Positions 8,778 through 60,670 of a stretch of 64,000 nt of DNA are shown piece after piece. How positions within the stretch are numbered: position 1 is the first letter of the stretch; each line of letters begins with the position of its first letter. Source of the stretch: a plasmid; sequence record NZ_AP023324.1; one strand, 5' to 3'. Both the position numbers and the translations under genes were made by a program. The notes beneath the pieces are model-generated. The model was not told the origin of the DNA. It made no database searches and saw only the letters and a list, made by a program, of their open reading frames with translations.

Positions 8778-11700
8778 GCCTCAGAAGCGCAGGCGCAGGC
8801 CTGCCGCGATCGTTTCCTGATGGTCGTCGCGGCCGGTCTGCGCGCTGCCGGTCGCGTACAGGTCGACGCCGTTCGCAAAGCGATAGGCGACGCCGGCGGT
8901 CGCGGTGCCAACCAGCGGCGCGCGCTGCGCACCCAGTGCGACCAGGCCCAGCCCGCCACCGGCATAGCCGCCCAGCGCCAGGGCGCGGTTGCCCTCGATC
9001 TGGTAGCGGGCGCCCAGCGTCACGAACGGGCGGAACGGCGCATCCGACGTGTCGCTGCGACCCAGGGTCAGCCCGCCATCGGCGAAGCCCGCGACATGGC
9101 GGTCCTTGGCGACGCTGAGCGCGAAGGGGCTGCCCCGTCTCGCCCACGCCCGCGCGGGTGGTGCGCAGATAGGTCAGGCCCGCACGCGGGGTCAGCGCCC
9201 AGCCATCCGCCATCTCGGCGGTGTAGTGGATCGACAGATCGCTGGTCCAGCTGTGCAGGTCGTAGCGACCGAAGCCCGAGGCCGTGCCCGGCAGCGCGCG
9301 GGTGGTCCGCGCCTGCGCACCGTCATAGATGACCGAGGCGCCAAAGCCGAAGCCGTTCGGCATCGTGTAGCGGCCATGGACGCCCGCCACCACGCCATCG
9401 GCGCGGGTCGAGGCGGCGAGCGGGGCGATCGACTGGCGGGTGTCGAGCCAGCCGCCGAACGCGCCGATCATCCATTGCTGGTCGCCGTAACCCACGCCGC
9501 CAGGAAGCCATAGCCGCGCGTCCGCGCCGCGCTGGTCCCCTGTGCCCGGTCGGCACCCAGCGTGTGCCACTGGCCCAGCGTCTGCGCGAAGGTGAACGGA
9601 CCGGCCTCGCTGCGGTTGGTGGCGAAGGCGGGACCGCGTGCCGCACTGGTCAGACCCAGCGCATTGTCGACGCCGATCTGCGTGGCCGAGGCATAGGCTT
9701 CGGGCGTCACCTGCGCGAAGCCTTGTGCGTTGGATGCGCCCGAGGCGGTCAGCAGCGACGGGAGTGCGGCGAACAGCGTGCTGGTCGCGGGCTGCTTGGC
9801 GAGCGTGGCATTGGCATAGTCGATGCTGCGCGCGACCTGCGGGCTGAACCGCGCATCGCCCAGGAACTGGCCGAGCAGCTGGATGCGGTCGGCGCGCTGG
9901 ACGATGAAGCCGAACAGGTCGCTGGGCTTCTGGATGGTCGTATAGCTGCCGCTGATCCCGCCGCTGGCGACGATCAGGTCATAGGAGGTACCGGGGCGGA
10001 TCGCGCCGCTCGACACGATCTGGAGCGTCGACCCGCTGTTGATCGTCATCGCGCCATTGACGACCAGCTTGTCCGAGATGGTCGGGGTCAGCTCGAAGTA
10101 GGACAGCGAGCCGTTGTTCAGCGTGACGTTGCCGTTGACCGTCATCGTGCGGCGACGCGCCGGGGCTGAGGATGCCCGCGACCGTCACATTGCCGTTGAC
10201 CGTCCCCGCCGAACCGAAGGTCGCACCTTGGCGGACCAGGAACTGCGTCGCGCTCATCGCCGAGTTGGCCAGGCCGACCAGTCGACCGTTCGACATGTCG
10301 ACAGAGCCGAAAGCGGCATTGCCCAACACGGTGGCATAACCGCCAGTCATCGCCAGCGCCTCGACATTGGCGACGTTGGTGAAGGCGACCGGTGCAGCGG
10401 CCGTCCCGCCCGACAGCGCGATCGTGTCGGTGCCGGCCCCGCCATCGACCGCACCTGCGAAGGTGCCGGCGATGGTGAAGCGCTGATTGCCGCTGGTGAA
10501 GGCAACCGGCCCGCCGTCAGGCTGCTGCCCGCCGCGATGGTCAGGTCGGTTGCGGCATTGACTTGATTATAGGCCTGCGTGCCGGCCAGCGAAAGCGTGC
10601 CGGTGCCCTCGCTTGCCAGCGTCTCGAAGCCGGTCAGCGTGCCGGCGGCCAGCGTCTGGTTGCCCGCCAGCTCCAGCGTGGCGCTGTCATTGCCCGCACC
10701 GCCGGCAACCGTGGCCTGCAGGATCGAGCCCGCCGACAGGCGCAGCGCGTCGTTGCCTGCACCCAGATCGATGACCCCGGCCAGCGTCGCGCTCTTGGCG
10801 ATGGTCAGCGACGTGTCGCCGTCACCGAAGCCCAGCGGTGCGCCGTTCGAACCGAGGACGCCGGTGACGGTCAGCGCCTTGCCGGTCAGCGATACATTCT
10901 CGAAGCCCGTCGCCAGCCCGCTCAGCACCACCGGCGCATTGGCGGTGAAGGCGAGCGTATCGGTGCCCGTGCCCCGTCGTAACGGCCCGCCGCATTGGTC
11001 GTGCCCAGCGCCAGCAGGTCGTTGCCTGCGCCGAGCGAAACGCTGGCGATGTCGCCATCGACGCGCAGCTGCTCGGCCGCGTCCGATCCGGTGACCGCAC
11101 CGATACGGTTGCCCGCCAGCGCCACGTTCAGCCCGGTGCCCGTGAGGGCCACCGTGCCGAAGCTCTGGTCGAGCGTCAGCGACAGCGTGCCCGAACCGGT
11201 CACCGCCAGCTGCTGGAAGTTGCTGCGCTGGCCCAGACCGGTGCGATCATCGCTGAGCAGCGCGGTATAGAGGTTGGTCCCCGCCCCGCCATCGACGCCG
11301 CCTGCGACGCGCGAGCCGGCCATCTCGACGAAGCTGTCATCGCCATCGCCCAAGGACACCGTGCCCTGGACCAGCCCGGCATTGACGAAGCGGTCATTGC
11401 CGCCGCCCAGCGCGACCGCGCCGGCGATGGTGCCGTTGTTGGTCACCGTTTCGGCCGCGTCGGTACCGGTGATGGTGGTGGCACCGGTGCTGGCGAGCGT
11501 CTGGCCCACCGCGACCGTCACCGATCCGCCCGCCACGCCCAGCGTGTCGAAGTTGAAGGCCCCGGCATAGGTGACGTTGCCCTGACCGACCTGGCTGAAG
11601 CGTTCGAAGTTCAGGAACTGGTTGCCGTTGACGGTGCCGCCCCCGGTCGCATCGACGATTAGGTTGTCGGAGCCCGCCCCGCCATCGACCGTACCGGTTA

Positions 11701-20450: not shown

Positions 20451-20836
20451 CGGCGCGTCACCGAATAGCGGCGCCGAACCGACTGGCAGAGCAGGACATG
20501 ACGGCGATGATCATCCTGTAGGGTTACGACCCGAAACAGGACGAAAACCGTCCGCCAGCTGCGCGTCCGCACGAACGGAAGCGCCAGCGACACCTTGGGG
20601 AAGCGCAGCATCACGATAAGGAACTTTGATCGAGGAATGGCGCGGGACGAAGGGGACGTGGTTGGGCACAACCCCATCGCCCCGACGAAGCCAATTTAGA
20701 TCAAGGGGTTCCGTCTGCCCATCTTGGACACATCACCGTCTCACGAATGAGACGACGGTGGCGGAGAACGTCTAAACGGACGGTATGTCCGCACCGATCG
20801 CGGCTGCGGCCAGCCCGCGCACATCGACCCGGGCCT

Positions 20837-22123
20837 TCAATCGCGCGCAGAGCAGCGCGCTGCCGCTGATCTTGCGCTGGACGAACAGCGTCTCGACATG
20901 CGGGACATGCCGGTGTCGCGGTCGGCAATCATCGGACGCGTCTCTTCGCGGACCACCGGCACGAAGGCGCGATCGCCAAAGTCGAAGGGGCCCGGCCGCG
21001 CCATCGTATCGTCGATCGCGGCGATGATCCGGTCGACCGCCGGGCGGTGCGCGGCGACCGCCGCCTCGCCCAGAAAACCCGTCTCCACCGCGATCTCGCG
21101 GATGCGGTCGCGGTCATGCGCCAGCCCTGCCTCGATCAGCCGGCGATAGGAGGCGACCGTCTCGGGCGGCACGTCGCGCGCGGCACCGAAATCGAGCAGG
21201 ACGAGGCGCTGGGTATCGGGCTGCCAGCGGTAATTGGCGAAATTGGGATCGGTCTGCATCATGCCGAAATCGAACAGTTCATGCAGGACCAGATCGATCA
21301 GCGCGGTCATCGCGCCATCGCGGGTCACCTGATCGGCCTCGGCCAGCGTCTCGATCGGCTGGCCGGGGATATAGTCCATCGCCAGCACCAGCGGCGTGGT
21401 CAGCGACTTCTCTGGCCTGGGCACGACATAGCGCGGATCGTCCGCCAGTCGCTCGGCGAAGCGACGCATGCGGTCGGCCTCGCGGATATAATCGGCTTCC
21501 TCGGCGAGCTGGGTCTTGGCTTCCGCCAGTAGTGGCTTGAGGTCAATCGCGGGCGGGATCAGGTTGGACACGCGCAGCAACGTCGCGACATTGTCGACGT
21601 CCGAGCCGATGCTGTCGCGCACGCCGGGATATTGGACCTTGATCGCGAGCACCCGTCCATCGGGCAGGGTCGCGCGGTGGACCTGCCCGATCGAGGCGGC
21701 CGCCATCGGCGCGGCCTCGAAATGGCGGAAGCGGCGACGCCAGTCGGCGCCCCATTCGACGCGCAGCACCTTGTCGAGTTGCGCGGGCGGCATCCGGTAG
21801 GCCTGGTCACGGAGCCGTGCGAGGATGGTCTGGAGTTCGGGCGGCAACAGGTCGCCCGCATCCATCGAAATCATCTGCCCCAGCTTCATCGCCGCGCCGC
21901 GCAAATGCGACAGCCGGTCGGCGACGCGCGCGGCATTGCCGGGGGTCAGGACCAGATCGCCCAGCCTCGGCCGCTCGCCTTGCGCCAGACGCCGCGCGCC
22001 CTCGGCCAGCATGCCGCCGGCGACCCCACCCGCGAGCCGGCCGAACGCGCCGGCACGGGCGAAGCGGCCGCTGGGCACGGCGCGGTGGGTCGGCTTGTCA
22101 TTGTCATTGGCCATGCCCGGCAT
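20837..22123 (-). CDS. ABC1/UbiB-family atypical kinase (C-terminal part frame-disrupted)
   Basis: ...AAMKLGQMISMDAGDLLPPELQTILARLRDQAYRMP...APMAAASIGQVHRATLPDGRVLAIKVQYPGVRDSIGSDVDN...DPNFANYRWQPDTQRLVLLDFGAARD. Confidence 0.75.
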   Translation of the reverse strand: MPGMANDNDKPTHRAVPSGRFARAGAFGRLAGGVAGGMLAEGARRLAQGERPRLGDLVLTPGNAARVADRLSHLRGAAMKLGQMISMDAGDLLPPELQTILARLRDQAYRMPPAQLDKVLRVEWGADWRRRFRHFEAAPMAAASIGQVHRATLPDGRVLAIKVQYPGVRDSIGSDVDNVATLLRVSNLIPPAIDLKPLLAEAKTQLAEEADYIREADRMRRFAERLADDPRYVVPRPEKSLTTPLVLAMDYIPGQPIETLAEADQVTRDGAMTALIDLVLHELFDFGMMQTDPNFANYRWQPDTQRLVLLDFGAARDVPPETVASYRRLIEAGLAHDRDRIREIAVETGFLGEAAVAAHRPAVDRIIAAIDDTMARPGPFDFGDRAFVPVVREETRPMIADRDTGMSRMSRRCSSSARSAAARCSARD

Positions 22124-22193
22124 AGCGGCGGGGATAGGGGTTGGTTCCCTCGGTGCCGTGCAGGAGCCAACAGTCCGACCTGTCAGAAGGAAA

Positions 22194-22208
22194 ACATGTC
22201 GACATGTC
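22194..22208. repeat. Palindromic motif copy a: ACATGTCGACATGTC (perfect 15-mer palindrome core), upstream of the ABC1-kinase gene
   Basis: Read directly from the sequence. Confidence 0.7.
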
Positions 22209-22355
22209 TTCAAGTGGGTGAGGCGACAACCGGGGATGGCTCCCGTCTTGACGATAGCAGGCAGGGAGTGAGGCGCGTCCCAATGTTCGCTACACGCCTC
22301 CGTCCATGCCGGCGGCTTGAACCTTTATTTCAATCCCCGGGCCGTGCTCCGATGG

Positions 22356-22907
22356 TCAGCGCAGGATGATGTCGGCGCCATGTTTGTGCGCCCGGATTTC
22401 TTCCTCGGTCAGGCCATTGATCTCGTGTGGGAAGATGAGCCAGTCATTCGTCTCGTGGACGAAAAAGTCGGGCTTGAGATCGGTCACGTTGCGCGACGGC
22501 TTGTAATAGACGGTCGCGACCTTCACCTCGTCCGGCAGGTTGTTCCGGCACCGCTGTTTCAGTTCCTTCAGGAGGGCGCGGATCGACCGCCCGGAATCGA
22601 AGACATCGTCGATCAGGAGCAGGCGATCCTCGGGGTTGAGGACATCCACGAGATGGCCCAGGCCATAGATGCGGACCTGCGGCTCCTGCTGGTCGATGCC
22701 CGTATAGGAGGCAGTACGGATCGCGATATGGTCGCTCTGGATGCCGCGATATTCGAGCAGCTCCTGAACCGCGATGCCGACCGGCGCACCGCCGCGCCAG
22801 ATGCCGACGATATGGGTCGGCCGAAAGCCGGAGTCGAAGACCAGATTGGCCAGGCGGAAGGAATCCTCCAGCAGGCGGTCGGCGGACAGATAGATTTTGG
22901 TGGTCAA
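22356..22907 (-). CDS. Phosphoribosyltransferase (purine PRT-like)
   Basis: 183 aa with the PRPP-binding text LLLIDDVFDSGRSIRAL. Confidence 0.8.
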   Translation of the reverse strand: MTTKIYLSADRLLEDSFRLANLVFDSGFRPTHIVGIWRGGAPVGIAVQELLEYRGIQSDHIAIRTASYTGIDQQEPQVRIYGLGHLVDVLNPEDRLLLIDDVFDSGRSIRALLKELKQRCRNNLPDEVKVATVYYKPSRNVTDLKPDFFVHETNDWLIFPHEINGLTEEEIRAHKHGADIILR

Positions 22908-23134
22908 GGATCGTCAATCATTGTTGCGGAGCGGGGCACGAAGCCATCGGCCCCTGATAGGCGCTCCATTTTGGCGGGCTCCTGCGGGAAGAGCAACCAT
23001 GGTGTGACCAGACGGAGCCATGGCGAGCGCGTGGGTCGGAAACGTAACGAGGGGCTGTGCCGAGAAAAGTGCCCCGTTATCGTCTCTTTGTTTCGTCATG
23101 CGCTACCAGCTAACGCGTACAATCGTGTCAAATA

Positions 23135-23165
23135 ATCGACGTGTCGAATTGTCTACATGTCGATT
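23135..23165. repeat. Motif copy b: ATCGACGTGTCGAATTGTCTACATGTCGATT (between the phosphoribosyltransferase and MerR genes)
   Basis: Read directly from the sequence. Confidence 0.7.
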
Positions 23166-23187
23166 AGTAGTAAGCTCTCCTTTCTGA

Positions 23188-23625
23188 TCATCGGGAAAGC
23201 GGCCTCGGGCAGGTCTCCGCCTCATGCTCGAAAGACAGCAGGATCGGGCATGGTCCTGCCGCCCCGTTTCCGCATTCGCGGACCAGATGGTCGAGCGCGG
23301 CCCGCGCCTTTTGCAACCCCGCGATCTGCACATCCAGCGCCGCGATCCGTTCCTGCGCCAGATCGCGCACCCGCGCCCGATCATCGGTCGCATCCAGCGC
23401 CAGCAACGCGCCGATCTGCGCCAGTGTGAAGCCCGCCTGCTGCGCCGAGCGAATGAAGCGAAGCCGCCGCGCATCCTCCTCGCCATAACGCCGGATGCGG
23501 CCCGCCCTGCCCGGCCCGGGGACGCTCGGGCGTGGCAAGCAGGCCGCGCCGCTGATAATAGCGGATCGTCTCCACCCCCACCCCGCCCTCACGCGCCAGC
23601 CCCGCGATCGTCCAGTCGGCCATGA
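23188..23625 (-). CDS. MerR-family transcriptional regulator (one frame break)
   Basis: N-terminal HTH MADWTIAGLAREGGVGVETIRYYQRRGLLATPERP. The C-terminal dimerisation and metal-region text is YGEEDARRLRFIRSAQQAGFTLAQIGALLALD...LVRECGNGAAGPCPIL. Confidence 0.7.
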   Translation of the reverse strand, partial: SWPTGRSRGWRVRAGWGWRRSAIISGAACLPRPSVPGPGRAGRIRRYGEEDARRLRFIRSAQQAGFTLAQIGALLALDATDDRARVRDLAQERIAALDVQIAGLQKARAALDHLVRECGNGAAGPCPILLSFEHEAETCPRPLSR

Positions 23626-23742
23626 TGCCACTCCAACCTGCCAATGACCTTGTGCGGATAAATGCTAGAGAGTTTGTCAGCATATTATCGCTGGACGCCA
23701 AGCGCGGCGAGATAAGGGGCTGGATCACCGGCCCCGTGATCT

Positions 23743-24781
23743 AGCGCTTCATGGCCTCAATCAGCTTCTTGACGTCGGCTACGTCCACGTGGCAGGATCA
23801 GAATGTCTTCGCCGCTTGCTACCACGATCAGGTCCTGTACGCCGACCGCCGCAACACGTACGCCGTCAGTGCGGATCAGGCAATTCGTGGTATCGATGGC
23901 CAGCACCTCGCCGCGATGGGCATTGCCGAAGCCGTCCAGCTCACTGATGGCGTGCAGGGCATCCCAGCTGCCGACATCGTTCCAGCCCATGGCGACAGGG
24001 ACTACCGCAACACGGTCGGCACGTTCCATCACGGCATAATCGATCGAGTCTGACGGGCATGCGGCGAAGGCGGCCTCATCGGGGCAGATGCGCTTGCCGT
24101 CGTGCTTGGCTGTACGAACCGCCTCTTCGGCTGCGGCGAGCATTTCCGGCGCATGTCGGCCGAGCTCTTCCAGATAACGATCGGCACGGAACAGGAAGAT
24201 ACCGCCGTTCCAAGCGTAGTCGCCCCGCGCGAGCATGGCTTCCGCCCGTTCCAGCTGAGGCTTTTCGACAAAGCGCGCGACCTGATGCACACCCTTGGCG
24301 ATCTCGCGACCGACACGGATCCAGCCATAGCCTGTTTCGGGCTTGTCGGCCGCAATGCCAAAAGTGGCGAGCCAGCCTTGGGATACCATGGGCAGCGCTG
24401 CTCGAATGGCGCTGTGGAATGCATCGAGATTTTCGATGACGTGATCCGATGGCATGACGAGCAGCACATCCTCGGGCTGGGCGACAAGAGCCGCCAGCGC
24501 GATGGCGGGTGCGGTGTTGCGGGCAACCGGTTCGGGATCAGCGCACGGGGCGGGGTGCCTGCTTGGGTCAGCTGGCTTTCGACCAGATCAGTATGGCGTT
24601 GTCCCGCCACGACAATCGGGGCTGCAAAACCATCGGTGTTGGTCCGCTGCGCGGTCAATTGCAGCATCGTCTCGTCCGATGTCAGCGCTAGCAACTGCTT
24701 GGGCATTTCCGGCCGTGACATTGGCCATAAACGCGTGCCGGACCCGCCGGACAGGATTACCGGCACGATCAAATGGTTCAT
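23743..24781 (-). CDS. Mannose-1-phosphate guanylyltransferase-like nucleotidyltransferase (2 frame breaks)
   Basis: N-terminus MNHLIVPVILSGGSGTRLWPMSRPEMPKQLL. The middle reads LLVMPSDHVIENLDAFHSAIRAA...GYGWIRVG. The C-terminus is recovered as ...HVDVADVKKLIEAMKR* after a break near 23790. Confidence 0.7.
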
Positions 24782-24946
24782 GAAGACTTCCTTGCGTCGT
24801 CGCGCCATTTGCAAAAATGGGCAATCAGTATCAGTGTTGAAGACGTCATGCGACGCCCGGTTCGCAGGCGCAACAAGAACGCAAATATCTATGCGTCGCG
24901 CTGCCCCAATCTTGCTCGCAGCGGGCATCTCCGCTGCGATAGAGAG

Positions 24947-24977
24947 TCTACATGTCGACGTATCGGATTGTCGGCAC
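24947..24977. repeat. Motif copy c: TCTACATGTCGACGTATCGGATTGTCGGCAC (divergent region between the guanylyltransferase and Grx-MauE genes)
   Basis: Read directly from the sequence. Confidence 0.7.
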
Positions 24978-25101
24978 TAATGGGACTGGCAAAATGGGAC
25001 ACCATTGACTCCGTACCATGGTACGTCCCCCATATGGGATGCGCACCCTCGATGGAGAAGGACGATGGCCAGCGCCGCCCCGGACCGCAACCCTGTACCG
25101 C

Positions 25102-25812
25102 ATGGTAATGGACACGCATGTCTGTCCCTATGGCCTGAAGGCCAGAGACCTACTGCGGCGCCAGGGCTATCGGATCAAGGATCATGCCTTGCGCACCCGT
25201 GAGGAAACCGACGCCTTCAAGGCCGAGCATGGCGTGAAGACCACGCCGCAGGTCTTTATCGGGGGCGAGCGGGTGGGTGGCTATGACGATCTATGTCGCT
25301 TCTTCGGCAAGCGCGTCGCCGACCCCAAGGCCACGACCTATCGCCCGGTCGCGGCGCTGTTCGCCATGACCGCGCTGATGGCGCTGGCCGCGTCGCAGGC
25401 GGTCTATGCGACGCCCCTGACCCTCCGTGCTGTCGAATGGTTCGTCGCGTTCAGCATGGCGGTGCTGGCGCTGCTGAAGCTCCAGAATGTCGAGAGCTTT
25501 GCGACCATGTTCCTGAATTACGACCTGCTCGCCAAGCGTTGGGTCCCCTATTCCTATGTCTATCCCTTTGCCGAAGGGTTGGCCGGTGTCCTGATGCTCG
25601 CCGGCGTGGCGGTCTGGGCCTCGGTGCCGATCGCGCTGGTCATCGGTGGCATCGGCGCGGTGTCGGTCGTCAAGGCGGTCTATATCGACCGGCGCGAGCT
25701 TAAATGCGCCTGTGTCGGCGGATCGAGCAACGTGCCGTTGGGCTTCCTATCGCTGACCGAAAATCTGATGATGATCGGCATGGCGCTATGGATGCTTATC
25801 CGACATGTATGA
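25102..25812 (+). CDS. Glutaredoxin-domain / MauE-DoxX-like membrane protein fusion
   Basis: The N-terminal Grx fold text is MDTHVCPYGLKARDLLRRQGYRIKDHALRTREETDAFKAEHGVKTTPQVFIGGERVGGYDDL, with a CPYG site, that is a monothiol-like variant of CPYC. It is followed by about 5 predicted TM helices with a MauE-like text. Confidence 0.6.
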   Translation: MVMDTHVCPYGLKARDLLRRQGYRIKDHALRTREETDAFKAEHGVKTTPQVFIGGERVGGYDDLCRFFGKRVADPKATTYRPVAALFAMTALMALAASQAVYATPLTLRAVEWFVAFSMAVLALLKLQNVESFATMFLNYDLLAKRWVPYSYVYPFAEGLAGVLMLAGVAVWASVPIALVIGGIGAVSVVKAVYIDRRELKCACVGGSSNVPLGFLSLTENLMMIGMALWMLIRHV

Positions 25813-25826
25813 TTGTCGACACGGGG
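25796..25826. repeat. Motif copy d: TTATCCGACATGTATGATTGTCGACACGGGG (just 5' of the recombinase gene)
   Basis: Read directly from the sequence. Confidence 0.7.
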
Positions 25827-25877
25827 ACACGTAGACTTGTGAGAGGGTTATGGGGCTGCTAGCATCGGTGTCGTCCC

Positions 25878-26838
25878 ATGGCCCGGCTGTCCCCCCTCCC
25901 CTCGCCCACGCTGCAATTGCCCGCGATCGTTGCTGCGGCGGATGAGCGGGCGCAGAAGCATTTCCTCGAATTTTTCGTCGCCACCATCCGCAATGCCCAT
26001 ACCCGGCGCTCCTATGCGCGTGGCGTGTCCGACTTCCTCGCCTGGTGCGCCGAGCGCGGTGTCGTCGCCCTCCCCAGATCGAACCGATCCATGTCGCGGC
26101 TGGATCGAGGAACTGGGCCGCGAACTGTCGGTGCCGACGGTCAAGCAGCGACTGGCGGGGATACGGCATCTGTTCGACTGGCTGGTGCGCTGTCATGTCG
26201 TGCCGACCAATCCGGCGATCTCGGTACGCGGGCCGGCCTATAGCGTTCGGCGTGGCAAGACGCCGGTGCTCGATCCCATCGAGGCGCGCGAACTGCTCGA
26301 CAGTATCGACGTGTCGACATGTATAGGGCTTCGTGATCGCGCATTGATCGGGTTGATGGTCTACAGCTTCGCGCGGGTCGGGGCGGCGCTGGCGTGCCGG
26401 GTCGAGGATGTGTTCGTCCAGAACCGCCGCCTTTGGGTGCGGCTGCACGAAAAGGGTGGCAAGCGGCATGAGATGCCGTGCCACCACAATCTCGACGAAT
26501 ATCTCCATGCCTATATCGACGGCTGCGGGCTGGCTGAGGATCGCAAGGGCTATCTGTTCCGTACCATCGCGCGCGGCACCGGCCGGCTGTCCCAGACCCC
26601 GCTGCCCCAAGCCAATGCCTATCAGATGGTCCGCCGGCGCGCGCTGGCGGCCGGGATCGGCACCGCGATCAACAACCATTGTTTCCGTGCGACGGGGATC
26701 ACCGCCTATCTGAAGAATGGCGGCACCCTCGAGCGCGCGGCCGCGATGGCCAACCATGCCTCCACCCGCACAACCCAGCTCTATGACCGGCGCTCGGATA
26801 CGGTGACGCTGGACGAGGTAGAGCGGGTGATCATCTGA
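25878..26838 (+). CDS. Tyrosine recombinase/integrase (XerC/D-phage integrase family), one frame break near 26070
   Basis: N-terminal SAM-like text ERAQKHFLEFFVATIRNAHTRRSYARGVSDFLAWC. The catalytic domain reads ...GLRDRALIGLMVYSFARVGAALACRVEDV...HNLDEY...NHCFRATGITAYL...HASTRTTQLYD, giving R..H..R..Y. Confidence 0.8.
26305..26326. repeat. Motif copy e: ATCGACGTGTCGACATGTATAG (inside the recombinase coding region)
   Basis: Read directly from the sequence. Confidence 0.6.
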
Positions 26839-26865
26839 CATGTCGGATTGTCGACATGTCGTCAG
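26835..26865. repeat. Motif copy f: CTGACATGTCGGATTGTCGACATGTCGTCAG (immediately 3' of the recombinase stop)
   Basis: Read directly from the sequence. Confidence 0.7.
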
Positions 26866-26877
26866 AAAGGGTGGGGC

Positions 26878-27250
26878 ATGGAGAATATCACGGCGAACCG
26901 ACTGGCGGCCGGATCGGTGCTGCGCTTCGCCTATCTCGCGCACCTTGCGCTGGTCTTTCCAATCTGCCTGCTATTCGGGCTGATCGGCATGATGAGCGGC
27001 GGCACGGTCTATCATAACGGCCAGACGGTTCATGGCTTGCCGGCGCTGTTCATCGCGCTGGCGCTGGGGGCCATCCTTCCCTTGCTGCCGGCCTTGTGGT
27101 TCTGGCTGGGTGTCCTGGTCCTGCGGCTCTTGCGGGGCAGGGGGCGGCCTGAGCGTCCGGCAGGACTGAAGCCTCGCTCTACCGGGCCTTTCCTTCCGCT
27201 GGTCGCAGCCGGATGGCGCCCGGCGACCCCGTCGATAGAAGCACCGCGCG
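26878..27250 (+). CDS. Hypothetical small membrane protein (2 predicted TM helices); the 3' end is uncertain because the ORF reads into the iterons
   Basis: MENITANRLAAGSVLRFAYLAHLALVFPICLLFGLIGMM...LPALFIALALGAILPLLPALWFWLGVLVL. There is no recognisable family. Confidence 0.3.
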
Positions 27251-27257
27251 CCCGGCC

Positions 27258-27357
27258 CAATTCATACTCGAAAGCACGAATTCAATCGTCCGCGAGGTGG
27301 TTTCCCCAAGGGGCAGGGCGCTGGCCCTCCCAAAGTTCGTGCTTTCGAGTATGAAAT
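27258..27357. repeat. Iteron pair upstream of repA: 27258-27288 direct and 27334-27357 inverted copy of TTCATACTCGAAAGCACGAAT
   Basis: Read directly from the sequence. This is the same 22-mer as the downstream iteron array. Confidence 0.65.
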
Positions 27358-27486
27358 CCAACATGACCCGTACGCCCACCCCGCGCGCAAAAGGACGCCA
27401 GTCCCCGATCGCCGGCCCGCCCACAGGGCGACCTGTTCCACCTCGACAGTCCGCTGACCAGCGAGATCCGGGGCGAGCGCTCGCTG

Positions 27487-28310
27487 ATGGCCTTTCCCTT
27501 CTTCGCGCTCAGCAAGACCGCGTGGATGAAGCCGCTGACCTATCATCACGCCAATGTCTCGATCGAGGTCCGCCCCTCGGCGCGGGGGGTGGCGACCATC
27601 TATGACAAGGAGATCGTCCTCTATATCGCCAGCCTGATGGCGGGAAAGATCGAGCGCGGCGAGGAGGTGGGGCAGGACTTCGTCTTCACCGCGCATGACC
27701 TGTTCTCGGTGACGAGCTCCAACCATTCGGCGCGCTCCTATCAGCGGCTGTCCGAGGCGTTGGAGCGGCTGCAGGGCACGCAGATCAAGACCAATATCGA
27801 GGCGGGCGGCGAGGGCGAAGAGGGCTTCTTCTCGGCTGTCCGAGGCGCGGCTGCATTATTCCAAGACGCGCACCGGCGAACGGCGGCTGAAGGCGGTCAA
27901 GGTGCGGCTGTGCGACTGGCTCCACCGCGCCATCCTGCGCGATCGGCAGGTGCTGGCCTATGCGCGGCCTATTTCCAGCTCGGCCCGGTCGAACGGCGCA
28001 TCTATGAGGTGGCGCGCGCGACTGCCGAGGAGGGGCGGCTGGAGATCGACGGCGACCTTCCGGCTCCAGATCGGCTATCAGAACCCACTCGCCAATTTCC
28101 GCGCCGCGATGAAGGCGATCGCGCAGGCCGACGCCATTCCCGATTACCAGGTCGAAGTCATCGAGGATGCCGAGCCCGAGGAACCCGCTGAGGGCAGGGG
28201 GCGGGGGCGGCGCGCGCCCTCCGCCCGGGTGATCGTAACCGCGCGCCCGCCAGCACTTCCGGATGAGGTTTCAGAGACACCCCGAATCACATCGGCACCC
28301 ATCGAGACGT
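27487..28310 (+). CDS. repA: Replication initiator protein RepA (RPA family of alphaproteobacterial plasmids); frame-disrupted near 27900
   Basis: N-terminal text MAFPFFALSKTAWMKPLTYHHANVSIEVRPSARGVATIYDKEIVLYIASLM... matches the RPA N-terminus pattern (F.L.K...P..Y.H..V.I.V.P...G.ATI.D.D.L.Y). It is flanked by iterons. Confidence 0.7.
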
Positions 28311-28328
28311 GATTCGCGGGGCGCGACC

Positions 28329-28479
28329 CAATTCATACTTGATAGCACGAATTATCGGCGTGAATTCATACTCGAAAGCACGAATGCTTCGCCGAATTCC
28401 TATCCGATAGCACGAATGACGCGCCCGAATTTTGTAATTCGGGCGGTGTTTTTGAATTCATACTCGAAAGCACGAATCG
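28329..28479. repeat. oriV-like iteron array: 4 direct copies of about 22 bp (28329, 28361, 28394 (degenerate), 28453) plus the inverted repeat GCCCGAATTttgtAATTCGGGC at 28423-28444
   Basis: Read directly from the sequence. Spacing is 32/33/59 nt. The array lies immediately 3' of repA. Confidence 0.7.
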
Positions 28480-28949
28480 TCACGGCTTACTTTGTTGGAG
28501 ATTTACTGCAAGGTTAACCCATATCGCGGGTCGAGACCTGTGAAGGCAGCATATGGGAGCGGTCGTGACCACATAAAGGAAAGCCCGGCACGAAGGCCGG
28601 GCATCCAGTACTACAGGAGCGACGTCGCCAAACGTCGATCCGGGGCATCACACACCCCCTCCTGATACGCCTGTCGCCCCTGCGGTTCAAGGATGCGCGC
28701 TTCGCGCCACGCCCTTTCTCGTCCTTTTTTGGTCCGGCCCCGGAAATAAGGGGAAGGAAGATGACGGCGTTCACCTTTGGTGAAGCGACGACGCGCGCTT
28801 GCGCAGGCCGCGGCCACGCGATCGGGGACATCCGTGCGCGTAGGCCATCGCACCGGCGCGCGTGTCCGCCGTGACAGCATCGAGGCGGGGACGTTCGAGG
28901 ACATGTTCTTCGCCACGCCGGCCAAGGGGAGTGTGACCGGCTGATCCGC

Positions 28950-29609
28950 ATGGCCCGCACCGCGCTCGATGCCGGTCGGCGGATCAAACGCGAGGCACGG
29001 GGGCAGGGCAGGGCGCTGACCGGCCCCGAACACGCGCTGGCCAGCCTGACGGCGGGGGCGGTGCGGGTCTATGAGGAGCTGTGCACGCTCGCCCGGCTCA
29101 ATGCGGGCCGTGTCTATCCCAGCTATGACCGCCGGCCGCCGCGACCGCGCTCGGCCGCGCCACCGTCGCGCGCGCGCTCAGATCTGGAGGAAGCTGGCTT
29201 CCTCGTCCGCCAGCGCCGGTTCCGCCGGGTGGAAGGCGAGGGGCCGGGGCCGCGCTGGGAACAGACCTCCAACGCCTATCGGCCGGTCGTGCCCAAGCAG
29301 CTGTTATCGCTATTACCCCGCTGGCTCCGCCCCGCCCCGGTTCCCGACGATGCCCTTCAGCATGTGGCGGAGCAGGCCGAGGAACAGGAACGGCTCAAGG
29401 CGCAACTGACCTGTCGCGAACTGGCGCAGTTCACCGTGGGGGGAGCGCTAGGCCGCGTACTGGCCCGGCTGGGCATTGCGATTGATCGACAGATGCCCGT
29501 GCGAGAGTCTCATGCCGATCCTGAACCCCTCCCCAGTTTATTTGAGAAGGAGAATAAAGCCTCCCCCTTGCCAGGTGAGACGCCCCTTAGTGGCCATGAG
29601 ACCACGTAG
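28950..29609 (+). CDS. Hypothetical protein in the plasmid-maintenance block. It is preceded by a translationally coupled small ORF (about 28757-28936) with a strong AAGGGGAAGGAAG RBS.
   Basis: 219 aa with no recognisable family. Arg-rich N-terminal text ...ALASLTAGAVRVYEELCTLARLNAGRVYPSYD suggests DNA binding (weak). Confidence 0.3.
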   Translation: MARTALDAGRRIKREARGQGRALTGPEHALASLTAGAVRVYEELCTLARLNAGRVYPSYDRRPPRPRSAAPPSRARSDLEEAGFLVRQRRFRRVEGEGPGPRWEQTSNAYRPVVPKQLLSLLPRWLRPAPVPDDALQHVAEQAEEQERLKAQLTCRELAQFTVGGALGRVLARLGIAIDRQMPVRESHADPEPLPSLFEKENKASPLPGETPLSGHETT

Positions 29610-29783
29610 AACGCCCACCGCAAACGACATAACTAGGGGAAATGACGGGAAGCGCCGGCTTCGCCGACGCCATGCTCCCTAGAAGGAGCAAGCGGATCCG
29701 TCAGCCTGTCTTTCGGCCTGTTTGGTGATGTGGAGGAGGAGAGTGGAAATAAGCCTGATCCGGCCATCATGTGCCGTTTCCTA

Positions 29784-29834
29784 CTCGACACGTCGGCCTG
29801 TCGACATGTAGTCTATATGACATGCCGACAATCG
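29784..29834. repeat. Motif copy g: CTCGACACGTCGGCCTGTCGACATGTAGTCTATATGACATGCCGACAATCG (spans the parA start)
   Basis: Read directly from the sequence. Confidence 0.7.
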
Positions 29835-30472
29835 CGATCATCAGCCAAAAGGGCGGTGCGGGAAAAACGACCTTGGCCATCCATCTTGCCGCCGCAGGAC
29901 AGGAAGTGGGACAGGTGTCGCTCATCATCGACACCGATCCCAGGGCGACCGCCAGCCAATGGGCGTCGGCGCGAGGACGCGCCCCCCGAAGTCATCGACA
30001 GCCCACCTCCACGCCTCGCCGCCAAGGTCGAACAGGCCAGGGGGCAGGGGGCCAAGCTGATCGTCATCGACACGCCGCCCCATGCCGATAGCGCCGCCCG
30101 CGCCGCAGTCGAGGCGGCCGACTGGTACTGATCCCCTGCCGTCCGAGCGCCTTCGACCTCTCGGCGATCCAGACGACCGCCAAACTGGTCCAGCTGCTGC
30201 GCAAACCAGCCTTCGTCGTGTTCACCGCCGGCAACCCCAACGCGCCGCGCGTCTATGCCGAGGCGGGCGAACTGGTCGAAAGCTATGGCACCCCGCCATG
30301 CCCCGTCCTGATCCCCGACCGGGCCGCGTACCGCCACGCCTCGGCGGAGGGGCGCACCGTCATGGAAACCGAACCGGCGGGCAAGGCGGCCGAAGAAATT
30401 CGTGAACTCTACAAGTGGACATGTCGACAACTAGACCTGCCCGTCGCTCGTTTTAAGAAGGTCCCTGCATGA
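29822..30472 (+). CDS. parA: ParA/Soj-family partition ATPase (2 frame breaks)
   Basis: MPTIAIISQKGGAGKTTLAIHLAAA (deviant Walker A)...IIDTDP...LIVIDTPPH...PSAFDLSAIQTTAKLV...IPDRAAYRHASAEGRTVME. Confidence 0.8.
30418..30435. repeat. Motif copy h: GGACATGTCGACAACTAG (3' end of parA)
   Basis: Read directly from the sequence. Confidence 0.6.
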
Positions 30473-30743
30473 GCCGCAAACCCAGCTTCGCCAATCTGCG
30501 CGATCGTACCGCGCCAGTCGCGGCGCAAGCCCATCAAACTCCGTTACTAATAGCGATGATGGAAGAGCCAGTCGTCCTGCTAGTCGAGAGGGCCGCAAAC
30601 AGATCGCTGGCTTCTTCACGCCTGAAATGTCTTTAGCAATGCATATGATGGCACGACGGCAGGGGCGAAGCCTTCAGGCGCTAATGGCAGAGGCGTTTGA
30701 CGATGTGCTGCGCAAATATGGGGAAAGCCCGGTGGGGGGATGA
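30469..30743 (+). CDS. Small ribbon-helix-helix (ParG/CopG-like) partner of ParA (one frame break)
   Basis: Its start overlaps the parA stop (ATGA). The C-terminal text is KQIAGFFTPEMSLAMHMMARRQGRSLQALMAEAFDDVLRKYG, typical of RHH centromere-binding proteins and antitoxins. Confidence 0.5.
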
Positions 30744-30761
30744 GACTGTGCCTTTTGAGAC

Positions 30762-31823
30762 AGGCTAGAGCAGATTCCGATCAGTATGCATCGTATCCGG
30801 CAGCGGCGAAGTAGTTGGCGCATTCGGCGGGCGTGAAGGTGTCGATGGCGGCACCTATGGCGCGGGACAGATCGTCGACGGTTTGTGCAGCGGCTTTGCG
30901 CAGGAGTGCTTTCAGCTTGGCGAAGGCGTTTTCGATCGGATTGAAGTCGGGCGAGTAAGGCGGAAGGAAGAGCAGCCGGCGCCCCTTGCCTCGACCGCCT
31001 CCCGCGCCGCGACGCTTTTGTGGGCGGGCAGGTTGTCCAGGATCACAACGTCGCCCCGTTTCAGCGTTGGAGCGAGTACCCGGGCAACCAGGCCTCGAAC
31101 CACGCCCCGGTCATCGGTCCGTCGATGACGAGCGGTGCGGTCATGCCCGAGAGCCGCAAGCCACCGACGAACGTGGTCGTCATCCAGTGTCCGTGCGGTA
31201 CAGCCATGCGCAGCCGTTCGCCACGTGGAGCGCGTCCATAGCGGCGTGCCATCTTCGTACTGGCACCCGTCTCATCGACGAAGACCAGCGTTTCCGGATC
31301 GAGGTCGAGCTGGCCATCGAACTAGGCCTCGCGCGCGCTCAGGACGTCGGGGCGGTCCTGTTCCTGCGCGTGGCCAGTCTTTTTTTGCGCGTATGCCCGT
31401 GACGGGCGAAGAAGCGCCACAGCGTCGATACCGCGACCGCGATCCCCTCGGCGGCCAGGCCCTCGCGCAGCTCGGCAAGAGTGATGTCGGGAGCCGCCTC
31501 GCACAGCGCCCAGATGCGCGCCGCCTTGGCCTCGGTCGTGGCCGAGCGCGTGTCACCGTCCTGCGGCTTGGCCGCTGGCTTTCCCTGATCGCGCTGAAGG
31601 GCCACCCACCTCACGGCACTGGCTGCGCTGACCCCGAACCGTGCGCGGCCGCCCGGCGTGACATGCCTCCCGAAATGGCACCAACAACCCGCTCGCGCAG
31701 GTCCATCGATAACGGCTTGCCCATCTGACCGGCCTCCCCTCGCCGGGGACGAGCATGAATCAGACTTCACTCCCTTTGGGAATCCCTCAACGATTCACAC
31801 TGATCGGATTTTGCTCTAACCTA
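30762..31823. mobile_element. IS630-family insertion sequence (about 1.06 kb) with about 22-bp imperfect terminal IRs
   Basis: IRL GGCTAGAGCAGATTCCGATCAG (30763-30784) versus the reverse complement of the right end GGTTAGAGCAAAATCCGATCAG (about 31800-31821). TA follows the right end. The internal transposase is of IS630 type. Confidence 0.7.
30785..31727 (-). CDS. IS630-family transposase (several frame breaks)
   Basis: N-terminal HTH ...FGVSAASAVRWVALQRDQGKPAAKPQDGD...TLAELREGLAAEGIAVAVSTLWRF. The DDE region reads ...VVILDNLPAHKS...LPPYSPDFNPIENAFAKLKALLRKAAAQTVDDL. Confidence 0.7.
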
Positions 31824-31964
31824 TCAGCGGCCTGAAAATGGGGAGCACGTCAACCTGCTATGACTACCGCATAATCCATTTCACTGCCTTTGCCTATTTC
31901 ACCGCTCTCGCAATCTATCTACATCGAATGGTGATTGACTTTAAATCAAGTCTTACTACCTCAA

Positions 31965-33154
31965 TCAGGTCGTAGCAATCGCATACCGAGGAAGTTCACT
32001 TTGATTATTAACAATAACTTCAGCGCGGGCAACTTCATATGCAAAATTACGCAGAAAATGACCTCGAGCAAAACGCTGTGCATTAGTGATCGCAGCCTCT
32101 GGGTCAAAGCTTGGGAGCCAAGTATCAAAGCGATTTAGTGCGTCGATCAGCGATTCTGCGGTCTGTTCATAAAAGTGAATGCCTGTCACGCCATCGATCA
32201 CTGTTTCCGTGCCGCCTCCGCGGCCGAAGACGACGACCGGACGACCAGCTGCCTGAGACTCGACCGGAATGATGCCGAAGTCTTCTTCGGCAGTGAAAAT
32301 CAGTGCGGAGGCTCGAGCATAGGCAGCCCGTAGGTCGTCGAAGCGCATCCGCGTGGTAAAGCGCACGTTTGGACCAGCTCGTGCCTTCAGCATTTTTAAC
32401 ATTGGGCCATCGCCGATGACGTGCAGTTTGCGGCCGGTTCAGTGAAGGCATCAACTGCTATATCAGGGCGCTTATAGGGAACGAGTTGGCTGATCCAGAC
32501 GCACTCGTCGCTGACATCGTCCGTTCGTTGGAACAGGTCGACATCGACTGGCGGATAGACGACGCTGGCATCACGCCCCCAGAATTTGCCGATGCGACGC
32601 CGGACAAACTGGCTATTGGCAATGATGAGGTCGGGTCGTGAGGCGCTTGAGCGGTCCCAGGCACGCATACGCGGCGCAATCAATTTCAAGTACAGCCCGG
32701 CCAGACGCCCGCTGGCAGCTCGATAGGCATGATACTGATCCCACAGATACCGCATAGGCGAATGGCAATAAGTGACGTGAATCGCGTCGGGTCGGGTGAT
32801 CACGCCTTTAGCCGGGCCAGCCTCACAGCTAATGACCAAGTCGTAGGCGCTGAGGTCGAGCGCCTCAAGCGCACCAGGCATTAGTGGGAGGTATTTCTGA
32901 TATTGTCTCCGGGCGAAGGGTAGCTTGGCAATCGCTGTCGTAAAGATACGGTGTCGCTTAATAGTCTGCGACAAGGCGGAATGATCGACAACATGGGTGA
33001 AAATGTCGGCATCCGGGTACAAGTCACAGATTCGCTCCAGTACGCGTTCACCACCGCGCATTACCACCAGCCAGTAATGGATGATGGCGACCTTGCGAGG
33101 CCTGACTGGAGCAGGAGCAGGGACGTCAGGCATCGGGGGCAGGGCGGAGGTCAT
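31965..33154 (-). CDS. GT4-family glycosyltransferase (frame break near 32400); the 3' region is AT-rich
   Basis: C-terminal text ...FTAEEDFGIIPVESQAAGRPVVVFGRGGGTETVIDGVTGIHF (the E-x7-E region). The N-terminal half reads VAIIHYWLVVMRGGERVLE. Confidence 0.7.
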
Positions 33155-33223
33155 TTATGGATATCCTGTCGAAATGAAAGCGGTAGCGGCGTCAGGAAAA
33201 GGGCGAGCTACGATCTGATAGTA

Positions 33224-34236
33224 TTACAGGCGGGGCGGCGTTTCCTGCTGGTCTAGCAGGGTCGCCTGCGCCACCCATCGCCGTCCACCTTGCCCAAGCG
33301 CGAGGCCGAAGGCCGGCAACAGGCCGAGCTGTTTCATGACGAGATAGGCTATAACCGGCGCGCCCATGCCGATCGCCGTGCACAGGACGAGATACAGCCA
33401 ACTGATGGGCGGCACGTGCAAGATTTTCATCAAAATGATTCGCGCACCAGCGCCGGCAAGAATATGCATGACGTAGATTGCCATCGACATGGTACCGATC
33501 GCCACCAGCGCGGCCACATGTTCCAGCCGCTGCGAAATCCATAGCATCACCACGATCCCACCGATAGCGGCAGGCAGCATGAGTACGGAGTTGTAGTTGC
33601 TGAAGCCATGATGATGGGCGACGGCGATGGCGGCGGCGCCCAGCAGCGTTAAGCCCGCCGCAACCCCGCCACCTATGCGTAGCAGGTCACGCAGCTTCGG
33701 ACGACCCATCGCCATTCCCGCAACGAAGAAGATCGGAAAATGTAGTAATTGATGGCCAAAATTGTCTTTCGGTAGCCATTCTCCGATCAGGAAGGCAGCC
33801 AAGGCGGGACGAAGAATAGCGGCAGTGGCAGGACGCTGGCCAGCATCATGAACAGGAATAGCGCATATAAGAACCAGAAAGGTGAAATAGGTGCCCAGGC
33901 GATGTAAAGCATTTGACGGGGGTCAAAGGCATTGTTGGTGACATGGCTGAGTACGGTCATGATGGTGCCCGACAATAGAGACCAGAGCACATAGGGATAC
34001 AGCACGGAGGCGATTTTGCTGCGTCGAAAATAGGTCATCCCTTTGCCAAGGCTGTTTGGCACGTTGAGACCGGCCAAAAACATGAACAGTGGCATATGGA
34101 ATGTGTACAGCGCGAAATCGAATAACTGCCAGCGGACATCCCGAAGCGTCCCCGCCGACACCAACCCACGCTCCATGTGGCCGAGCACGACCAGGAATAT
34201 TCCTATACCCTTCGAGGCATCCTGGGGGCACCTCAA
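33224..34236 (-). CDS. Acyltransferase-3 family membrane O-acyltransferase. Its first approximately 30 codons lie at 42058-about 42150 on the far side of the transposon.
   Basis: ...DASKGIGIFLVVLGHM...FHMPLFMFLAGL... is followed by multiple TM helices. The reading frame continues across the Tn boundary: RC of 42058-42150 gives ...LTNQPPSPQRWPTTSPQVYETATNKLSRSARYIWQ|DASKG. Confidence 0.7.
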
Positions 34237-34266
34237 GGTTTGTCATATGGACAGCGGCAGTCGGAA
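34224..34266. repeat. Tn3-family left terminal inverted repeat
   Basis: See the transposon entry; it starts with the GGGG typical of the family. Confidence 0.8.
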
Positions 34267-34370
34267 CAAATGGTCAACAAAAGCCTGAGCGTTGCCGCAA
34301 AGTATATTAAGTTTCGTGGGTTTGTGAGGTTGGACGAGTTGGAAGTTACCGGATCACCTCTCGTGATGTT

Positions 34371-35194: not shown

Positions 35195-35214
35195 GGCGAA
35201 ATCCTACTCCTCAA

Positions 35215-35818: not shown

Positions 35819-35929
35819 GCTGATTAGCAACAGACATTTGCGACAGCGTCCGCCCTCGTGGCGTGACCGGTTGTAAACGCTCGCGCTAAGTGGCGGCATT
35901 CTGATCGCGCTATTTGTCGGCGAGCGTCG

Positions 35930-36506: not shown

Positions 36507-36611
36507 GCCGGTGGCGCCCGATCGGGCGCGGTTTGGGAAGAAAGTCGTCATCGGCAGGTCTATGTTGCCCTAGTTTTCTTTACCGGGTAGATTTACGTCG
36601 AACAGGCCGGT

Positions 36612-38893: not shown

Positions 38894-39030
38894 CAAATAG
38901 CGCGATCAGAACGCCGCCATTTAGCGCGAGCGTTTACAACCGGTCAGGGCCGCTGTCACGAAACTTGAGAGTTACGCGACACCTCGCACGTGTCGGCCAT
39001 AAACTATACGCTCCCGGACAGGGGTGATCG

Positions 39031-41989: not shown

Positions 41990-42009
41990 GCCGCCCTGTT
42001 CGCTACCTG

Positions 42010-42052
42010 TTCAGCTTACCGCTGTCCGTGTCACAAACCTTGAGGTGCTCCC
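42010..42052. repeat. Tn3-family right terminal inverted repeat
   Basis: Reverse complement matches IRL at about 36 of 43 positions. Confidence 0.8.
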
Positions 42053-59961: not shown

Positions 59962-60670
59962 TCACGCCACTATGAAAGACAATAGTATACAATCTTGATA
60001 CTATGTAGACATGTCGATCAATCGACAGGTCTACGGAAAAAAAGCCTTGATCGTCAGGGATTTCGGCACTTGCGTCCTTCCCAGTATCCCCGTTCAGCAC
60101 CCAGCGATCACCCTCGCGCGTGGCGGCCTGCTCGGCGCTATGCACCTCGTCCAGCTGGCGGGTGAGGAAGGGGAAGGCGGCACGGATGTCGGCGCGCTGG
60201 GTCCAGGCGGGGGGCTGGACGATGCGATAGTCGTAACGCAGCACCTCGCCCTTGACCGCCGGACCGGTCGCGGCGCCGACATCGCGGGCCTCGGGGCGGA
60301 CCGCGACCACCTGTTTGCGGCCGTAGCAGAGCAGAGGCTCGGCCGGGCTGCCGGGGTCCAAGCGACGCAGCCACAGATCGCGCTTGCCCGCTTCGGTCGG
60401 CTCGATCCGGACGCGCGGACGATCGCCGGTGTCGGGCAAGGCCACGCGGCGGACCAGTCCGGCCGCGACCAGCGCGTCGACCTTGGGGCCGCTCAGCGCA
60501 TCGGCGCTGAATTCGATCGGCCATGTACCCGACAGCAGCGGTGCGCATTGCCGCTGCCCCTCCACCTGCGCGCGGATCTGGGCAAGCGCCTCGCCGCTGG
60601 GCTGGGGCTGGCTCGCACCTTCGCTGCACGCGGCGAGCAGCGCCAGCCCGGCGACCAGCGCGCGGGTCAC
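59930..60670 (-). CDS. Hypothetical lipoprotein
   Basis: MTRALVAGLALLAACSEG lipobox. The 3' end reads through an AT-rich segment containing a palindromic motif copy, so the stop is uncertain. Confidence 0.4.
   Translation of the reverse strand: MTRALVAGLALLAACSEGASQPQPSGEALAQIRAQVEGQRQCAPLLSGTWPIEFSADALSGPKVDALVAAGLVRRVALPDTGDRPRVRIEPTEAGKRDLWLRRLDPGSPAEPLLCYGRKQVVAVRPEARDVGAATGPAVKGEVLRYDYRIVQPPAWTQRADIRAAFPFLTRQLDEVHSAEQAATREGDRWVLNGDTGKDASAEIPDDQGFFSVDLSIDRHVYIVSRLYTIVFHSGVIAISCRYDNP
60006..60033. repeat. Motif copy i: TAGACATGTCGATCAATCGACAGGTCTA (inverted pair, AT-rich junction between the lipoprotein and GH43 genes)
   Basis: Read directly from the sequence. Confidence 0.6.

Follow-up and report, generated by a model that had tools for sequence, protein, structure and literature searches.

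The DNA analyzed here, a 64,000-nt stretch of plasmid NZ_AP023324.1 (hereafter the window), belongs to a Sphingomonas paucimobilis-type plasmid and contains a family of short palindromic repeats concentrated around its recombinase, repA, and parA genes, which raises the question of which protein and which process these repeats serve. A first-pass annotation, made from the letters alone, had proposed operator or centromere-like sites of a locally encoded DNA-binding protein, with a ParG-like ribbon-helix-helix (RHH) protein listed first among the candidates. We consider it highly probable that the repeats, which form tandem arrays, are the binding sites of the dimeric RHH protein encoded just downstream of parA. 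Since this protein would be the centromere-binding partner of a small Walker-type ParA, the pair would constitute a type Ib partition system. Binding of the RHH protein is suggested by the co-occurrence, positional conservation, and covariation of the arrays with the parA-RHH gene pair.

Arrays of an 8-bp palindromic unit and their association with ParA-RHH

Analysis of the repeats revealed that each copy is an array with a strict 8-bp period and about four units (range 2–6). The unit consensus is TCGACATG, which from another starting point reads as the palindrome TGTCGACA in tandem, and conservation within the unit is symmetric around the central CG; one array, for example, runs TCGACGTG TCGAATTG TCTACATG TCGATTAG in 8-bp steps. 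The first-pass annotation had described palindromic units in varying arrangements and spacings and had missed this period, which is the organizing principle. Exact TGTCGACA occurs 10 times in the window versus 0.80 ± 0.80 times in dinucleotide shuffles, in line with the earlier statement that the 8-mer is rare by expectation and over-represented here. When one mismatch is allowed, the count is 50 versus 22.5 expected, a much weaker signal, and the nine hits given earlier for the 8-mer and its one-mismatch variants therefore understate the raw count.

For array detection, the 8-bp unit was represented by a position weight matrix (PWM), and scores were summed for three units in a row. Exactly 10 clusters in the window reach at least 14 bits, with scores of 20.4–29.3; in 30 dinucleotide shuffles, the best cluster per shuffle averaged 14.0 bits and never exceeded 18.3. 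All nine copies listed by the first-pass annotation were recovered at their coordinates, together with a tenth, located in an autotransporter gene, that had been overlooked (Table 1). Eight of the ten arrays lie within 22179–30443 (8.3 kb, 13% of the window; binomial P ~3e-6).

The same PWM was applied to 80 loci, taken from one genome per species and nearly all from Sphingomonas, in which the RHH protein is 58–100% identical, with a threshold of at least 18 bits and block-shuffled copies as controls. The scan recovered 400 arrays in 1.445 Mb versus 1 in the block-shuffled copies, with a median and mode of four units. Arrays are present with ParA-RHH in 80/80 loci, and they fall into three positional groups: 79 lie upstream of parA (79/80 loci), 78 in the 3' end of parA (78/80 loci), and 243 are dispersed. 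A homologue of the window's tyrosine recombinase is encoded in 3/80 loci and a homologue of its MerR regulator likewise in 3/80, while the 32 loci that have no repA and adjacent HTH_36 gene (RepA-HTH) within 10 kb still carry a mean of 5.7 arrays.

Comparison of related replicons gave the same picture. Plasmids with ParA-RHH homologues carry arrays; none were found on a Sphingobium plasmid carrying the recombinase homologue only or on an S. sanguinis plasmid carrying only MerR and glutaredoxin. About 160 kb of related Sphingomonas and Sphingobium DNA without the RHH gene, including 50 kb from a large gyrA-bearing replicon of S. parapaucimobilis and a Sphingobium plasmid with RepA-HTH and ParAB, contained zero arrays.

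The parA-RHH operon and its two fixed arrays

The parA product matches the NCBIfam model NF041546 ("ParA family partition ATPase") with 206 bits against a cutoff of 180, as well as Pfam AAA_31/CbiA. As in type Ib systems, it is a Walker-type ParA of about 200–220 amino acids (217 in the intact orthologue) without an N-terminal DNA-binding domain, it is followed by a small RHH gene whose product has a probably unstructured N-terminal part, and short-repeat arrays adjoin the operon, both in the 80 loci and in three more distant subgroups. The start of the RHH gene overlaps the parA stop codon by 4 bp. The RHH protein matches Pfam PF20605 at residues 40–89 (E = 8e-22) and consists of a conserved N-terminal MSRKPSFANLR, a variable Ala/Pro-rich linker, and the C-terminal RHH domain; its database accession is WP_082052576.1.

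Alignment of the 80 parA upstream regions revealed the conserved pattern TTGACC-N18-TAGAAG-N7-ATG, and the register of the upstream array relative to the parA ATG is fixed in 66/80 loci. When this pattern is mapped onto the window, the parA-proximal array spans the inferred core promoter together with the parA start codon, and it would thus be placed to act as both operator and centromere site. Because the ATG at 29822 lies only 7 nt past the −10 hexamer, the parA mRNA is probably leaderless. A generic sigma-70 scan did not call the inferred parA promoter and placed no promoter at any array.

The second fixed array encodes the C-terminal tail of ParA (..LYKWTCRQLDL..). Across dozens of species, with replicons that are GC-rich (63–67% G+C), the codons at this site are TGT in 42/42, CGA in 34/36, and ACA in 28/35 cases, as compared with 20%, 6.9%, and 8.7% for the same codon classes elsewhere in those parA genes. 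Since these rare A/T-ending codons are kept there, the nucleotide sequence of the site is under selection. The ParA tail of other RHH subgroups changes together with the box sequence. Many relatives have a third par array in or beside the short gap downstream of the RHH gene (L012, 6466; L013, 17424; L014, 1156; L015, 8313; L010, 20283–20318); this position is not visible in the window, because an insertion sequence directly follows the RHH gene. Collinearity with the reference plasmid introduced below likewise ends at IS-related sequence right after the RHH gene (window 30764–34224).

Covariation between protein and site was observed across four RHH subgroups, whose proteins all match PF20605: the 8-bp period and the par-proximal positions are kept, while the box and the predicted DNA-reading beta-strand differ. 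On Gluconobacter, Sphingobium, and Rhizorhabdus plasmids, where the RHH protein is 45–53% identical, the box is CATG-N4-CATG-N4-CATG, and such arrays are confined to three places, namely the region upstream of parA, the parA 3' end, and the gap just downstream of the RHH gene or its immediate surroundings, with 2–4 per locus versus 0.00–0.01 expected. An Acetobacter plasmid carries AACATGG-type units and a Calothrix plasmid GATGGCAT units at the corresponding par positions. The predicted beta-strands are GRKQIAGFF in Sphingomonas, GKKAMTGYF in the Gluconobacter/Sphingobium/Rhizorhabdus subgroup, GKRAVVGYF in Acetobacter, and GKKAITVHF in Calothrix. A lag-8 self-similarity scan of the distant subgroups found nothing at the chosen threshold, and the arrays were recovered by explicit box patterns. 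Together with the co-occurrence in 80/80 loci, this covariation supports the first-pass proposal that placed the RHH protein at the head of the list.

The same observations bear on whether the repeats have anything to do with partition at all. They might instead be palindromic repeats of the repetitive extragenic palindromic (REP) or miniature inverted-repeat transposable element (MITE) kind, RNA hairpins at gene 3' ends, or host-factor sites; the first-pass annotation had itself offered a short mobile palindromic repeat as an alternative. Several arrays can form hairpins, many of the intergenic ones touch or overlap the stop codon of the gene before them, and TCGACA resembles a −35 hexamer. 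However, the related RHH-less DNA, including the gyrA-bearing large replicon, has no such repeats, and no flanking sequence is conserved past the array, whereas REP, bacterial interspersed mosaic element, and MITE copies would share it; the repeat families end at about 32 nt. Moreover, it is specific bases with an 8-bp period that are conserved and not base pairing, the sites at parA keep fixed positions even inside coding sequence, and the box changes with the RHH subgroup. We therefore regard an origin unrelated to partition as very improbable.

Taken with an RHH protein as the reader, the arrays suggest the following mechanism. One RHH dimer would occupy each 8-bp unit, and neighboring dimers 8 bp apart would bind cooperatively. 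Loading of the 29785–29832 array would both repress the operon and form the partition complex, in which the conserved N-terminal MSRKPSFANLR would then stimulate ParA; a second such array is written into the last parA codons. The other eight arrays would provide extra loading sites near the replication and partition core, most likely serving as further centromere-like sites by which the partition complex becomes larger, although a regulatory role is possible for some dispersed arrays, such as the one ahead of the repA operon.

Points against the assignment, rival readers, and the dispersed arrays

Several observations weigh against assigning the arrays to the RHH protein. Four members of its family gave no match to PF09274, the Pfam ParG family, even at E ≤ 10, and a sequence search of the PDB with the RHH protein returned no match. 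A Foldseek search with a single-sequence AlphaFold model, itself weakly informative (predicted local distance difference test score of 76, with the beta-strand modeled as a helix), gave non-significant matches to RHH proteins, with ParG (1p94) second at E = 3.6. No paper was found on this RHH protein family, and a literature search on the motif, PF20605, and sphingomonad partition sites yielded nothing relevant. Promoter-bearing gap types are not over-represented among the gaps with arrays (tandem 18/105, divergent 4/30, convergent 3/25). Both partition genes are frameshifted in the window, as detailed below. Finally, the HTH_36 protein is also present on 10/10 of the plasmids with a close RHH homologue in PLSDB, and the complete S. 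aerolata plasmid NZ_CP098764.1, which has RepA-HTH but neither the RHH protein nor the small ParA, carries three arrays (L100, 17998–18033; L102, 25594–25633 and 27140–27163), one of them upstream of repA.

The last two observations favor another reader, namely the HTH_36 protein encoded beside repA (the 28950 open reading frame [ORF] of the first-pass annotation) or RepA itself, for which the arrays would be operators or iteron-like sites. Co-occurrence on its own does not separate the RHH and HTH_36 proteins at the whole-plasmid level, since both are present on all ten PLSDB plasmids. In addition, arrays lie upstream of repA in 18/30 loci where RepA-HTH adjoins par, as against 6/18 where it does not. 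Location, on the other hand, argues for the RHH protein. Where the two blocks are separated, 12/18 loci have no array within 400 bp of RepA-HTH, and the arrays cluster at parA-RHH; likewise, on the annotated plasmids of S. hankookensis, S. insulae, and strain NY01, in which RepA-HTH lies 3–15 kb from ParA-RHH, arrays surround ParA-RHH and none are near RepA-HTH. The Sphingobium RAC03 plasmid pBSY17_3, which encodes a ParAB system and an HTH protein with 58% identity, is free of arrays over 39 kb, whereas RHH subgroups on plasmids without this HTH gene have 8-bp arrays at the same par positions. RepA also has iterons of its own, from which the arrays are distinct: a separate family of about 24 nt, GAATTCATACTCGAAAGCACGAAT, flanks repA in six copies at 27256–27361 and 28327–28491, an inverted pair upstream and four direct copies downstream, and presumably represents the RepA iterons of the origin. 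A role of the HTH_36 protein or RepA as the reader is thus improbable in our assessment, and co-occurrence and location together lead us to reject or down-weight all the other candidates that the first-pass annotation had named (the recombinase, the MerR regulator, and the 28950 product).

The frameshifts were identified by comparison with close relatives. The 22–31 kb region is 95.6% identical to plasmid unnamed2 of S. paucimobilis FDAARGOS_908 (NZ_CP065671.1, 76,480 bp), with which the whole window is collinear except for insertion sequences and one 7.8-kb insert; this segment, at 34224–42052, has no counterpart in the reference plasmid. The reference plasmid carries 11 arrays. Against the near-identical contig of S. 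paucimobilis NBRC 13935 (L016, 2–10300), window 20520–30767 shows 389 substitutions (3.8%) and 43 small indels, mostly 1–2-nt deletions on the window side. These shift the frame of parA twice and that of the RHH gene once, the latter by a 1-nt deletion near 30541 that leaves the RHH domain intact in the frame 30543–30740, and split ORFs suggest similar frameshifts in repA, the recombinase gene, and the guanylyltransferase gene. They reflect either sequence errors or a system that is decaying on this plasmid.

The annotated gene order of the stretch is AarF/UbiB kinase, phosphoribosyltransferase, MerR, mannose-1-phosphate guanylyltransferase, glutaredoxin/MauE-DoxX, tyrosine recombinase, small ORF, RepA, HTH_36 protein, ParA, and the 91-amino-acid RHH protein. 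Arrays occupy six of its nine gaps; the exceptions are the MerR/ManC gap and the two gaps on either side of repA, in which the RepA iterons are located. The earlier description of an array in every intergenic gap was thus overstated. That of an almost exclusively intergenic family was roughly right, as seven of the ten arrays are intergenic and three lie inside coding sequences (the recombinase gene, the parA 3' end, and the autotransporter gene). The intergenic enrichment, a check that the first-pass annotation had called for, holds in annotated relatives, where 28/38 arrays are intergenic versus 15% intergenic DNA (P = 8e-16). MerR and glutaredoxin/MauE-DoxX are adjacent and divergent on other plasmids (e.g., L007); in the window, the guanylyltransferase gene and an array separate them (23188–25812).

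Table 1. Positions of the arrays, the partition genes, and the inferred parA promoter in the window.
Feature	Positions	Strand	Location or basis
Distant array, 4 units	10274..10305		Within autotransporter coding sequence
Dispersed array with perfect 14-bp palindrome ACATGTCGACATGT	22175..22214		AarF/UbiB kinase start to phosphoribosyltransferase gene end
Dispersed array, 4 units	23136..23167		13 bp past MerR stop codon
Dispersed array, 4 units	24947..24978		Divergent gap between mannose-1-phosphate guanylyltransferase and glutaredoxin/MauE-DoxX genes
Dispersed array, 4–5 units	25800..25839		Glutaredoxin/MauE-DoxX gene end to recombinase start
Short array, 2 strong units	26306..26321		Within recombinase coding sequence
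Dispersed array, 4 units	26835..26866		Overlaps recombinase stop codon; 13 bp upstream of small ORF preceding repA
Inferred parA promoter: −35 TCGACA (29785–29790), 18-nt spacer, −10 TAGTCT (29809–29814)	29785..29814	+	Match to alignment of 80 upstream regions
parA-proximal array, six 8-bp units TCGACACG TCGGCCTG TCGACATG TAGTCTAT ATGACATG CCGACAAT	29785..29832		Across inferred parA core promoter and start codon
parA, small Walker-type partition ATPase, 217 amino acids in intact orthologue	29822..30472	+	NCBIfam NF041546, Pfam; two frameshifting deletions in window
parA 3'-end array TCTACAAG TGGACATG TCGACAAC TAGACCTG	30408..30439		30–60 bp upstream of RHH start
RHH gene, proposed array-binding centromere protein, 91 amino acids in orthologue	30469..30743	+	Pfam PF20605, alignment
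Distant array, 4 units	60006..60037		Upstream of family-43 glycosylhydrolase gene; equals reference-plasmid positions 1911–1946

The window's tyrosine recombinase (25878–26838) offers a further possible explanation, in which the arrays would be its recombination sites (att, cassette, or dif-like) and would bound exchangeable gene modules. The recombinase gene is bracketed by arrays that form 32-nt direct repeats (25790–25821 and 26825–26856) with 81% identity, an arrangement also found in L061. In S. pseudosanguinis, the inter-array segment 22175–23136 is swapped for a different gene, with the left breakpoint at an array. An array also accompanies a cargo gene into an RHH-less plasmid: one of the orphan S. 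aerolata arrays is located at the end of a cargo gene, and the homologue of this gene on an RHH plasmid (L061) has an array in the corresponding place, so that arrays can travel with cargo. Against such a function, the recombinase is encoded in few array-bearing loci (3/80), and loci with the recombinase only have no arrays, although its target sites would be expected there. The protein is a homologue of the pPDL2 integrase, whose attP matches the 3' end of a tRNA-Ser gene; the same study reported ParA with no parB homologue (PMC3516476). Recombination junctions were also sought directly: an array was found no more than 25 bp away for 85/492 breakpoints and at a junction for 52/109 structural differences. 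Since an array is present in about 20–28% of the intergenic gaps of these loci, breakpoints placed at random in such gaps would produce as large an excess, and the proportion of homology breakpoints near arrays, about 30%, is likewise what random intergenic gaps would give. We rejected the arrays as recombination junctions on these grounds, and a function as recombinase sites appears highly unlikely.

The S. pseudosanguinis exchange (window 22218–23239 versus L017, 1802–2724) replaces the phosphoribosyltransferase gene between the two arrays with an unrelated tetratricopeptide repeat-like gene on the opposite strand. On the right, the break falls within the 3' end of MerR, about 60 bp past the array.

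Returning to the RHH protein as the reader, we examined how the dispersed arrays are kept. Their nucleotide identity between relatives is no higher than that of the flanks (0.764 versus 0.785). The array pattern, however, is kept at the orthologous position in 56/68 cases versus 29 expected under neutral decay, a significant difference, which indicates that the dispersed arrays are maintained by selection. Because promoter-bearing gaps are not enriched, a general operator role for them is unsupported, and we rejected it, the sigma-70 scan having placed no promoter at the arrays. The lack of preference slightly favors a promoter-independent role. The scattered arrays may be extra centromere sites or, in individual cases, operators.

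Scattered sites of a partition protein are known from KorB and its OB sites on IncP-1 plasmids and from the centromere sites of the phage-plasmid N15, where about 4–12 sites are spread over the replicon. The KorB and N15 proteins are of the helix-turn-helix, ParB type (type Ia), and their sites are single palindromes, in contrast to the 8-bp-period arrays described here. More tentatively, the distributed four-unit arrays of this large family of Sphingomonas plasmids, which are maintained by selection, number as many as a dozen per replicon, and lie at cargo-gene boundaries and even in coding sequence, could form a multi-site centromere or a chromatin-like scaffold that also insulates or silences neighboring genes and, on recombination between plasmids, moves along with cargo modules; we regard this as possible but rather doubtful. 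If true, such a scaffold would be an RHH-based counterpart of KorB or of chromosomal multi-parS networks, without ParB-type spreading.

Relation to known systems and significance

The formally closest match to tandem TGTCGACA is provided by the metboxes of MetJ, in which one RHH dimer binds each 8-bp palindromic box (AGACGTCT), two to five boxes are arranged in tandem, and dimers 8 bp apart make cooperative contacts. MetJ, however, is a chromosomal, co-repressor-dependent regulator with no ParA partner and no role in DNA segregation.

Among partition systems, the closest parallels are found in TP228 and pSM19035. In ParF-ParG-parH/OF of TP228, as here, the gene for a small Walker ATPase is followed by that for a small RHH protein with a flexible N-terminal tail, and the operon is preceded by arrays of short boxes with an 8-bp period, which in TP228 serve as operator and centromere; ParG binds ACTC boxes at regular 4-bp spacers, one dimer per box (PMC3130281). 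The present system differs in that its RHH protein falls outside the Pfam ParG family, its unit is a GC-rich 8-bp palindrome without AT-rich spacers, and its arrays contain about four units as against 8 and 12. Furthermore, where TP228 has one contiguous region, a plasmid of the present kind carries about ten arrays, including one within the coding sequence of parA. The omega/delta/parS system of pSM19035, with delta as its ParA, shares an RHH centromere-binding protein and several separate repeat arrays per plasmid. Its omega protein recognizes 7-bp repeats at six promoter-overlapping parS sites, and no fewer than four contiguous repeats are required (PMC9499535), a minimum that matches the modal four units observed here. 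The pSM19035 arrays overlap promoters of partition and copy-control genes, and one array in the window precedes the repA operon. In contrast, the omega repeats are non-palindromic and belong to a Firmicute host, and all omega sites are at promoters, while the dispersed arrays here show no preference for promoter gaps and many flank cargo genes.

The palindromic GC-rich unit, the short arrays, the site inside parA, and the roughly ten arrays per plasmid thus distinguish this system from those known. It is of the known type Ib kind, with new variant features, and belongs to a family for which no published centromere was found; specifically, we found no paper describing the centromere of a ParA and PF20605-type RHH module. 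Many plasmids of sphingomonads and acetic acid bacteria, and some of cyanobacteria, have this module for partition, and the ParA-RHH search matched 113 plasmid records and 212 genome contigs. Defined as tandem TGTCGACA at an 8-bp period, the site can be used in annotating centromeres and operators on such plasmids, and it would help in predicting partition-based incompatibility and in designing vectors that are stably maintained in these bacteria. The system extends the textbook type Ib scheme in two directly testable respects: one site is overprinted on the coding sequence at the parA 3' end, and many dispersed arrays are maintained by selection.

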